From assembly GCF_013167455.1 (NCBI RefSeq), contig NZ_CP038328.1: a DNA stretch of 64,000 bases. One strand, written 5' to 3'. Source of the DNA: Escherichia coli O157:H7. GTDB lineage: Bacteria > Pseudomonadota > Gammaproteobacteria > Enterobacterales > Enterobacteriaceae. Position 1 is the first letter of the stretch. The number at the start of each line of letters is the position of its first letter. Positions 59,301 to 62,300 of the stretch are shown here, piece after piece. Made by a program: the position numbers.

Positions 59301-62300
59301 TCAGAATAATCACTATCAGCGCCGTGGTGTGAGGTATTACGGCGCATTGCTATGCAGGACAACACAATGACCGATAAAGAATTGACCAAAACATTATCAC
59401 CGGCACGGAAAAGACGGCGCAGAAAGATAGAGCATGAATCAGAAAGATTCGCACCATGTGCTTTTGCCCTTGAGCAATTCCTTAAAGAGTACAGGGAAAA
59501 GCGCTCATTGCAGGTATGGCAACGAACTGAACCAGACTGATTGCATTGCCCACCAGCCTGATAGCGGCTATCATCCCCGTGCTTATGTTTGGGATCACAT
59601 ACACATAAGGCGCAGCGGGTTAATTGTTCAGAAAGGCGGCTCCATATCGGGGCCGCTTTTTTCGTGTTTGTCATATCTGTGATACCCGTTAAGCAGCCGT
59701 TCCGCGTGCTTCCTCTTCGCGTTCTTTCTGCCAGGACAACACATCATCCTCATACCATCCGCGACGGCGTAAACCAACGCGAAAACCCTGCGGAAATTCT
59801 CCGGCGTTGATCATGCTTTGCAGCGTGCTGTCTGCCTTGATGTGGATAATTTTTTTTACTTCCTGGCGAAAGATAATTTTTCTGATTGCTTCCATCGTGA
59901 TTTACCTTGTGAATCCGGTGTATTCCGGTGACAAATACGGTAAATCATCGGATATGGGTAAAAACAGTTCCCACCGTTTTTAAACGGTATACACCGTTTT
60001 TTATATTGATGATTTGAAATGGAATTATAAAAAAAGCGGCATTTCTGCCGCTTCCAGGATTGTTACCGCCATTTTTTGGGCCTGCCTCCGATCTTCATAG
60101 ATGCCGGACGTACGACCTTATCAATACTTACCGCCAGATTTCTGGAAGCGCCACGGGATACCAGAAAATCTACTACCTGTTTTTTTGATGGGGCCGTCGT
60201 TCTGTCCTCCGGATCGTAGGTTGACCAAAATTCATGCTGAACCATCAGGGCCAGTTGCAGCCCGTCGCAATTGCATCTGATATTTTTTTGCATCTTAACG
60301 GTTTCATGTTTCACGGCCTTGTCGTTAAATTTGATGCAATTATACGACGGTTTTACATGGTTTTCGTAGTTTTTACTGGTTTTCTGTACAGCTACACGGC
60401 TCGGATACCCCTTTTACCACTGGCGAGGGTTACGCCCGTCGCCGCGGCCTCGACAAATTCGCCCCACCAGCGCATCAGCACGATGCGTTTTTCTATGTAG
60501 TTGCTCCGGTTGTATGCCCGTCTAACTTCGTTGGTGTCGACGTGGGCAAGTGCCGCCTCTATTACGTCCGGCTCGAATCCTTCCTCGTTCGCTGCTGTGC
60601 TGAATATGGCGCGTAATCCATGAGACACCAGCACGCCAGCGAATCCCATACGCCGCAATGCTGCGTTAGCTGTCTGGCTGTTCATCGGCTGCTGTGGGTC
60701 TTTCAGACTTGGGAAAACGTAATTGCGGTGGTGGCTGATTGGTTTCATGGCCTCCAGCACCGCCATAGCCTGACCGGAAAGCGGGATAACGTGATCCCTG
60801 CGCATCTTCATGCGTCCGGCAGGTATCGTCCATTGCTTCGCGTCCAGGTTGATTTCATCCCACCGCGTTGATGACGCTTCGGCGGGACGGGTTACGGTCA
60901 GTAACTGCCATTCAATCAGTAATCTGGTCTGCCGTTCTGTTGCCGATACTGATAAAGCCTGCATAAGCTCGGGCAGCTGTTCGGGGCGGATTGTTGGCAT
61001 ATGTTTTTTTACAGGTGAGGGAAACGCCTTACGCACATTCATAGCCGGATTGGCATCAATCAGCCCACTGTTGGCGGCGTAATCCATTACCTCATTAACG
61101 CGCTGTAAAACCCGCTTGAGTGTTTCCAGGTTGCCGCGCTCCTTGATGGGGGTAAGCACTTCAACGAACCTTCGGGCGGTGAGGGTATCTATTGGCGTGT
61201 TGCCGATGAACGGGAATACATATTTATCCAGCGAACGCCAGATGTCTTTAATCGTGTTGGGGGCCAGATTCTGGCTGATTTTCACCTGGTACCATGCCGC
61301 CGCCACATTTTCGAACGTGTTCCCTTGTCTTCGGGCCTCTGTCTCTCTTTTTTGCCTCTCGTGGTCCTGCGGGTCAGTTCCGGCACTGATTAACGTCCTG
61401 TACTCGCTACGGCGTTTTCTGGCATCAGCCAGGGAAACATCTTCAAGCGATCCAAAACTCAGCAATATTCTTTTTTTGTCCGATGGTCGGTAGTAGGAAA
61501 ATCTCCAGAGTTTTGATCCAGACGGTTTGACCAGGAGAAAAAGCCCTCCGCCGTCCTGCAGGGTGTACTCCTTTTGCGCTGGTCTGGCTGCTTTGATCTG
61601 CACTGTGGTTAATGGGTGTGTTTTTCTCGCCATATGTCTATGATTCCACACGAAAAAACAGGGTTTTAGTTATACGGCTTTAGTTATACGCCAGCCCGTA
61701 TAACTAAACGTATAACTAAAAAATCCGGCTGATAGCTTATAAATCCGGTGATGTTCGGTGACTAAAAAACATAAAAAAACCCGCCAATCAAGTGATTAGC
61801 GGGTTATCCCTGTCTTATCCGGTGCTTTCCGGTGATATCCGGTGGGCGATTTGGTCGGCACGAGAGGATTTGAACCTCCGACCCCCGACACCCCATGACG
61901 GTGCGCTACCAGGCTGCGCTACGTGCCGACTCGTGGTTGTTAATACTACCGTTTTCCACACCGATTGCAAGTAAGATATTTCGCTAACTGATTTATAATT
62001 AATCAGTTAGCGATAAAACGCTTCTCGTCTGTCAGTACTTGCAATAACAAACTTAACTGTGGTTTTTCATCTTTCACTCTTTCACCACGTAAGTTGTAAG
62101 TGCGGTATTTACCGTTATTGTTCAGCACCAGCGTCTTTTTCGGGGTGGTAATTGCCAGCGTATCGTTATCCGCTGCGGTAACCCAGTAATGACGGCGTTG
62201 AGGGTTGAACAAATCCTGACCTTGCGAATATTCGCTGGCAGGTGTGCTGACATGTAGCAGGCGTTGCATCAGCGTCGTCATCAGATCGGTATGATCAGTC

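Follow-up and report, generated by a model that had tools for sequence, protein, structure and literature searches.

The attachment site (attP) of satellite phage P4 was reportedly described by Pierson and Kahn in 1987, and the regulation of its int gene by Int and Vis is said to have been reported by Piazzolla et al. in 2006 and by Cali et al. in 2004. The P4 record (NC_001609) annotates 12-bp 'attP arm sequence repeats', two of them abutting in tandem on either arm and oriented alike (the int-side pair at 3942–3965), together with an inverted arm repeat over the int ATG. The order int, alpA, primase and packaging genes is typical of Gram-negative phage-inducible chromosomal islands (PICIs), and in one of these, EcCICFT073, AlpA is the master activator, which activates its own promoter, triggers excision and is needed for it (Fillol-Salom et al. 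2018, PMC6092414). The direct repeats bound by recombination directionality factors (RDFs) are spaced by about one helix turn, and Apl of phage 186 binds at att as well as at promoters (PMC7498355); in KplE1 (CPS-53), repression of int by IntS and TorI via sites overlapping a promoter in the att arm is established experimentally, and similar int repression has been reported for P4 Int/Vis and PAI I536 (PMC2951348, PMC7286903). The subject here is a 9.6-kb island at the tRNA gene proL, contained in a stretch of 64,000 nucleotides (the window) of Escherichia coli O157:H7 (assembly GCF_013167455.1, contig NZ_CP038328.1). As read from its sequence, its attachment layout is that of a P4-type attP within a PICI-type island, a plan long known from P4; the explanation that is probably correct as a whole is that the island ends carry arm sites for a P4-like integrase (Int) and, in addition, excision and regulator sites for an AlpA-like protein.

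The island is inserted between yejO and proL–yejM, with its int-side arm as the right end, and the order yejO, island, tRNA-Pro, yejM is annotated in relatives as well. A direct repeat of 17 bp, TTTGGTCGGCACGAGAG, exact in both places, marks the two ends of the island (Table 1). Removal of the island exactly at the repeat gives a composite sequence that is 100% identical and contiguous in genomes of E. coli O157:H7; among 5426 complete E. coli genomes, it is contiguous, as an empty site, in 4825, and the int-side arm is found in 451 (about 8%). Because the repeat is exact and the empty-site composite exists in genomes, the island boundaries and the integration site are firm. The recognisable island genes (from open reading frames and PHROG matches) are int, a small open reading frame, an alpA-like gene, a primase gene (55945–57777), a terS-like gene and a capsid-like gene, all but one on the minus strand; the order int, alpA, primase, small-terminase-like, capsid-like is that of Gram-negative PICIs, and relatives are annotated with the same content. 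By gene content and order, this is a phage-satellite island of the PICI or P4-like type, located in the 3' end of proL.

Int starts at the ATG at 61636 (relatives begin MARK... or MAI...), matches NCBIfam PRK09692 with 552 bits, and is 34% identical to P4 Int over 404 aa (BLASTP, E=8e-81); Pfam Arm-DNA-bind_3 (PF13356) is matched at residues 9–96 (E=8e-23), followed by Phage_int_M and Phage_integrase. Four copies of a 10-bp motif, CGTATAACTA, two inverted and two direct, had been predicted between the int start and the core, with the direct pair recurring at the far end at the same 12-bp period. An exact scan agrees on both counts, finding six copies in 64 kb, at 61667(−), 61681(−), 61697(+), 61709(+), 52354(+) and 52366(+), with the next-best match carrying one mismatch and lying outside the island. 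The repetition stands and the 10-bp unit length does not: the true repeat unit is an exact 12-mer, CGTATAACTAAA, present in six copies against 0.03 expected, a count reached in none of 100 shuffles. All six 12-mers lie within 190 bp of the island ends, with four near int and two at the far end; in each direct pair the copies abut in tandem at a 12-bp period, the inverted pair has a 14-bp period, and the int-side sites lie 130–185 bp from the core, which is unrelated to them in sequence. An identical 26-bp block, CCGTATAACTAAACGTATAACTAAAA, carrying two direct CGTATAACTA copies, is common to both island ends. That these repeats are integrase arm sites on both arms, as the original prediction proposed, is strongly supported by the Arm-DNA-bind_3 domain, the P4 attP layout and the co-variation described below, and the 12-mers are very probably arm-type sites of Int.

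The relatives compared comprise five E. coli proL islands (arms 68–95% identical) and eighty loci from other genomes, the far end being judged just where it lay within the fetched DNA; individual loci are cited by L numbers. In about 25 relatives, from E. coli, Pectobacterium, Erwinia, Citrobacter and Gilliamella, a tandem pair and an inverted pair lie upstream of int; every proL-integrated relative has the tandem pair at a 12-bp period, then the inverted pair just before the int ATG, and Gilliamella and Frischella elements at other tRNAs follow the same tandem-plus-inverted plan. The far-end tandem pair is found about 60 bp from the core in seven more distant loci and four E. coli relatives, a pair in the motif of the lineage being present in L002–L005, L007, L009, L013, L015, L016, L017 and L022 (for example, TAGCTATACA twice in L009 and TGGGACTAGA/TGGGACTAAA in L022). 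The motif itself varies by lineage (TAGTTATACG, TAGCTAyACG, GGGACTA, ATGTTATA, GGCATAC), and both ends change together.

These changes are paralleled in the integrase. Mean identity of the Int N-domain is 71% within a motif class versus 53% between classes, compared with 80% both within and between classes for Int outside the N-domain. The Pectobacterium integrases of L013 and L015 are 99% identical from residue 96 on, against 67% over residues 1–95, and the DNA identity profile of the two loci has a block of about 330 bp (L013 1586–1916, L015 9936–10266) that is just 50–75% identical between flanks that are 90–100% identical, reaching from the first arm repeat into int as far as roughly codon 88. 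Because this divergent block covers both, the arm repeats and the arm-binding domain are swapped together, as a single unit, and the co-variation overall indicates that arm-site specificity is linked to the Int N-domain.

Two other accounts of the 12-mers have to be weighed. The 26-bp block could be a passive duplication, either extended att homology or the scar of a tandem integration, with the inverted CGTATAACTA copies arising by chance or belonging to the int leader; the identity of CCGTATAACTAAACGTATAACTAAAA at the two ends would suit this, as would the occurrence of tandem islands at proL. The blocks, however, are set back from the crossover repeat by 61 bp and 130 bp towards the island interior, which places them outside it, and are missing from the empty site; moreover, their geometry is conserved across genera although the motif sequence changes, the motif is swapped along with the Int arm-binding domain, and P4 is annotated with the same arrangement, all of which makes passive duplication extremely improbable. 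The 12-mers could instead serve a different protein of the island as iterons or operators, for example a primase or replication initiator, or AlpA, given that satellite islands carry iteron arrays and that a position just upstream of int suits a transcriptional regulator. This, too, is very improbable: motif class tracks the Int N-domain and not primase or AlpA (L013 and L015 have different arm motifs with AlpA identical over the aligned region), and the iterons of the island are a different motif, GGTGAACAGT, at 55708–55932, near the primase gene, by which 12-mers as replication iterons are ruled out.

With the 12-mers read as Int arm sites, the correspondence to P4 is extensive. Both elements encode a homologous integrase with an arm-binding domain and a small AlpA/Vis-type protein, both target a tRNA 3' end, both transcribe int away from att, so that its control region lies inside the arm, and both have an abutting 12-bp tandem pair per arm with an inverted copy or copies at the int start. 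P4 differs in its arm motif, TGCCCCCA, which is unrelated to CGTATAACTAAA, and in its target, leuX instead of proL; the window island, for its part, has two inverted copies versus one, a terminator between core and arm sites, a core-abutting triple of a second motif, and PICI-like terS-like and capsid-like genes with no sid, psu, delta or cI, and is not a P4 element. EcCICFT073 (L088, E. coli CFT073) has the tandem pair GGTGTAGTTAAT at a 12-bp period before int and at the far end (6884–6907, 18093–18116). To our knowledge, no dissection of att arm sites has been made for EcCICFT073 and other Gram-negative PICIs. Like the window island, EcCICFT073 runs int, alpA, primase and packaging in one direction over about 10 kb (PMC6092414); it differs in its int, of another integrase lineage, in a non-tRNA target between roxA and phoQ, and in its AlpA allele and repeat motifs.

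The second motif, TCCGGTG, had been predicted five times between int and the core and twice upstream of alpA. The two alpA-upstream copies are exact (59914 and 59924), and four of the five in the arm are exact (61744, 61818, 61828 and 61838), all on one strand; the fifth, at 61754, is TTCGGTG, with one mismatch, and a weaker TCCGGCT lies at 61724. The window total of 16 copies against 7.3 expected is no strong enrichment. The arrangement is non-random: TCCGGTG is the sole 7-mer in the window that forms a triple at a 10- or 11-bp period (0.02 expected in simulations), and just three loci of the window, the alpA-proximal one included, have two copies of a 7-mer with a period of 10 bp. Followed in the int direction, the arm leads from the core through three CACCGGA units at 10 bp, the terminator, CACCGAA and CACCGGA at 10 bp, and CAGCCGGA to the tandem pair, the inverted pair and the int ATG; the pair upstream of alpA reads, in the sense of the gene (CACCGGA), CACCGGAATACACCGGA.

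Core-adjacent degenerate units at a 10-bp period number three in most relatives and two or fewer in L001–L003 and L005, and relatives with AlpA 50–87% identical keep them in degenerate form (two in L002 and L003). A pair of the form (G/C)ACCGG-N5-CCGG stands upstream of the alpA ribosome-binding site in L002–L004 and L013–L017. L001, L005 and L007 have another alpA control region and an AlpA 63% identical, and TCCGGTG is missing at both places; in L001 and L007, a 9-mer, GACGGTAAC (8/9 in L007), is common to the arm and the alpA upstream region, inverted, with about 0.1 expected.

The AlpA-like protein matches PHROG excisionase/regulator families (E=2.5e-6) and is 29% identical to P4 Vis (E=1e-7). 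Its AlphaFold model (pLDDT 83) has a beta-alpha-alpha-beta-beta-alpha topology, a MerR-type winged helix, and the Foldseek neighbours of the model are MerR-type domains, BldC and Xis of the mycobacteriophage Pukovnik, with weak E-values of 0.07 or worse; a PDB sequence search returned just one marginal AlpA-family match (E=0.4). Among described excision factors, a close parallel is offered by 186 Apl and lambda Xis, which likewise have head-to-tail repeats at 10–11 bp on one att arm, a second array at the promoter of their own regulatory gene, and a small monomeric winged-helix protein to bind them (PMC7498355). They differ in that there is no sequence relationship and that the window arrays are short (2–3 units); the promoter-side effect expected here, by analogy with PICI AlpA, is activation, whereas Apl represses. 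The proposal that the TCCGGTG copies form a separate regulator or excisionase set is plausible in view of their helix-turn spacing, their location and their tracking of AlpA type, and by analogy AlpA is favoured, with modest confidence, as the protein that would bind the arrays, both as excision factor and as autoregulator. A defined binding site of AlpA in PICIs was sought in the literature, with no usable result.

A factor other than AlpA, whether a host nucleoid protein, an alpA inducer supplied by a helper phage or the small basic product of orf83 (an open reading frame between int and alpA), is an unlikely though serious candidate for these arrays. The alpA transcription of a related island needs a helper-phage factor (PMC6092414), and the pair at 59914–59930 is part of the control region of alpA; the E. 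coli lineages with orf83 are precisely those with clear TCCGGTG copies (the window and L002–L004), and L001 and L005, which lack such copies, lack orf83 as well. For a phage inducer, however, the core-adjacent array would not be expected, and the relatives from Pectobacterium, Erwinia and Pantoea keep core-adjacent CCGG units and the alpA CCGG pair although they lack any homologue of orf83, which rules orf83 out as the common TCCGGTG binder. Repeats arranged head to tail at one-turn spacing characterise monomeric winged-helix RDFs (PMC7498355), whose fold the AlpA model shares, and a dimeric regulator would be better suited by palindromes at 59962–59999. Core-type Int sites were also considered for the core-proximal TCCGGTG triple and rejected: its copies are all direct, occur on the island side only and are missing from the empty attB.

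The transcription signals of the int-side arm lie among these repeats. The intrinsic terminator in the arm is kept via compensatory changes in its stem in L001–L005 and other genera, and the native proL terminator has been moved to 52238–52270, beyond the far side of the island; the island terminator is predicted to end the proL transcript and to shield int from read-through. Of 22 arms from relatives, 18 have as their best sigma-70-like match TTTACA, a 17-nt spacer and TAnnnT at the homologous place (with a −35 variant, TTTTCA or CTTACA, in four of those 18), and the int promoter, placed by this homology, appears to lie inside the arm, where the candidate −10 spans the join between the two tandem arm sites and a CCGG unit opens the spacer. 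If this candidate is the int promoter, Int bound to the tandem pair would repress it. KplE1 attL (Panis et al. 2010, PMC2951348) likewise lies at a tRNA gene and, as proposed for the window island, its att arm contains the int promoter; there, an arm-type site overlaps the −10, RDF (TorI) sites lie near the −35, and Int and RDF both down-regulate int (PMC2951348). It differs in that the promoter and regulation of the window island are predictions, TorI and IntS are other proteins, and the sites have other sequences and numbers.

In the proposed mechanism, the two island ends would join in the excised circle to give an attP of the classical heterobivalent kind. The C-terminal part of Int would act on the 17-bp core and its N-terminal Arm-DNA-binding domain would dock on the six identical 12-mers CGTATAACTAAA, so that Int bridging arm sites and core would assemble the recombination complex. 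The TCCGGTG copies would most likely be bound head-to-tail by the 68-aa AlpA-like winged-helix protein, which at the core-proximal triple would introduce a bend into the int-side arm and favour excision, and at the alpA-upstream pair would act on its own promoter. Int, and perhaps AlpA too, would throttle int expression, as in P4 and KplE1.

Several observations weigh against this explanation or parts of it. The TCCGGTG-like units of relatives are degenerate, approximating WYCGKWW, which leaves their co-variation with AlpA no more than suggestive. The AlpA-like protein is a weak family member by sequence, falling below threshold against Pfam Phage_AlpA (E=0.0034) and matching no NCBIfam family, and in EcCICFT073 int is expressed without AlpA control (PMC6092414). 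The candidate int promoter of the window is poor, with 6/12 consensus matches, and scanning the alpA region and the int-side arm for the sigma-70 consensus gave no convincing minus-strand promoter. A search of the far arm for the exact consensus of integration host factor (IHF) found none. Partly deleted attL cores in several relatives suggest that some copies may no longer be mobile; the window copy is intact.

Coordinates of the features are collected in Table 1.

Table 1. Attachment-site, regulatory and gene features of the proL island (positions in the window)
Feature	Coordinates	Strand	Remarks
attL core	52276..52292		TTTGGTCGGCACGAGAG, copy of proL 3' end; exact repeat of 61850-61866
A/T-rich 61-bp spacer of far arm	52293..52353		Candidate site for a bending protein (e.g. 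IHF)
Far-arm tandem pair, 2 x CGTATAACTAAA	52354..52377	+	12-bp period; 61 bp from core
alpA-like gene, 68-aa winged-helix protein	59689..59895	-	Candidate excision factor and activator
TCCGGTG pair, 10 bp apart	59914..59930	+	Candidate AlpA autoregulatory sites; 19-36 nt upstream of alpA ATG
int, P4-like tyrosine integrase, 414 aa	60392..61636	-	Pfam, NCBIfam and P4 Int similarity
Inverted pair, CGTATAACTAAA at 61665-61676 and 61679-61690	61665..61690	-	Begins 29 bp upstream of int ATG
Int-proximal tandem pair, 2 x CGTATAACTAAA	61697..61720	+	12-bp period
Candidate weak int promoter	61707..61735	-	-35 CTATCA 61735-61730, 17-nt spacer, -10 TACGTT 61712-61707; by homology
Mid-arm TCCGGTG family: TCCGGCT 61724, TCCGGTG 61744, TTCGGTG 61754	61724..61760	+	CCGG/TCGG units kept in relatives
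Intrinsic terminator	61778..61805	-	12-pair stem then T-run; directly after proL, in att arm
Core-proximal TCCGGTG triple, 10-bp period	61818..61844	+	Candidate RDF array; ends 5 bp from core
attR core	61850..61866		3' end of proL
proL, tRNA-Pro(GGG)	61852..61928	-	Integration target; ARAGORN

The wider pattern that was not expected is a modular diversification of arm specificity with a shared core target, along with tandem islands of different arm classes. It can be proposed, tentatively and at somewhat short of an even chance, that in proL-targeting satellites the arm-recognition module (the Int N-domain with its 12-bp sites on either arm) has diverged into no fewer than four or five mutually distinct specificity classes and been swapped horizontally as a cassette, the core-binding and catalytic part remaining near identical, and that the differing classes of tandem islands reflect selection for 'orthogonal' arms. 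Tandem proL islands in L017 and L030 have the GGGACTA class followed by the GGCATAC class, two cases in all, and selection for non-cross-reacting arm modules is hinted at by these few related examples; if true, orthogonal arms would let neighbouring or competing satellites avoid mixed recombination complexes or mutual excision. Lambda and HK022 present the mirror image, with arm specificity shared and core specificity different. The established picture of site-specific recombination is unchanged by this. Formerly anonymous repeats become an att-site map of core, arm sites, candidate excision-factor sites, a tRNA terminator and a probable self-limited int promoter, and the natural cassette swaps narrow a matched protein–DNA specificity pair to about 95 residues and 12 bp, which makes this satellite family convenient for the study or engineering of tyrosine integrase arm specificity and for the question of cross-excision in tandem islands.

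The second island or remnant of each tandem arrangement lies after the far end of the first island (L017 18330–18610; L030 about 9750–10000), with near-identical CCGG, terminator and promoter sequence and a third arm motif, GGCATAC / GTATGCCTA; the second int of L017 is truncated after about 54 codons.

At the far arm, the spacer between the core and the tandem pair is of similar length and A/T richness in all relatives. The int-side arm has one exact IHF-consensus match, WATCAANNNNTTR, at 61786–61798, inside the terminator hairpin, and the window-wide count of such matches is that expected by chance. Directly inside the far-arm tandem pair, at 52381–52403, lies the block TTTGCTGAAAAAGTGTACAATTT, which is kept in five of the five E. 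coli relatives compared (consensus TTTGCTGnAAAAnTnTACA); non-E. coli relatives have TGACTTTTC there. The attL cores of L002 (2449–2462), L003, L005 and L004 (3772–3786) have lost 2 or 7 bases and read GGTC-CACGAGAG or GGGATTTGCACGAGAG; islands with such shortened cores may be immobilised, or crossover may be confined to CACGAGAG.

Upstream of alpA, by about 70–100 bp, the window has two adjacent 18-bp palindromes, AAACGGTGTATACCGTTT and AAACGGTGGGAACTGTTT (minus-strand sense), at 59962–59999, which are conserved in L002–L004; they look like the operator of a dimeric regulator, and helper-phage induction of alpA perhaps acts there. The 83-aa orf83 (60063–60314, minus strand) encodes a product ending in a basic GGRPKKWR tail and is followed by a terminator from 60055 to 60032; it matches no PHROG or NCBIfam family, and homologues are found just in the E. 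coli proL islands L002–L004. In P4 (L006), four phased (C)CGGA units with 10–11 bp spacing adjoin the int-side arm pair at 3966–4010; they resemble the TCCGG-type units of the window and are possibly Vis sites. In EcCICFT073 (8440–8480), GACACAA direct repeats lie upstream of alpA and GAACAA-type repeats downstream of int. Finally, the window region 55708–55932, immediately downstream of the primase stop at 55945, contains GGTGAACAGT about ten times, on either strand and in part at 10-bp intervals (17 matches in the window with up to one mismatch versus 2.7 expected); these copies are probably the replication-origin iterons of the island.

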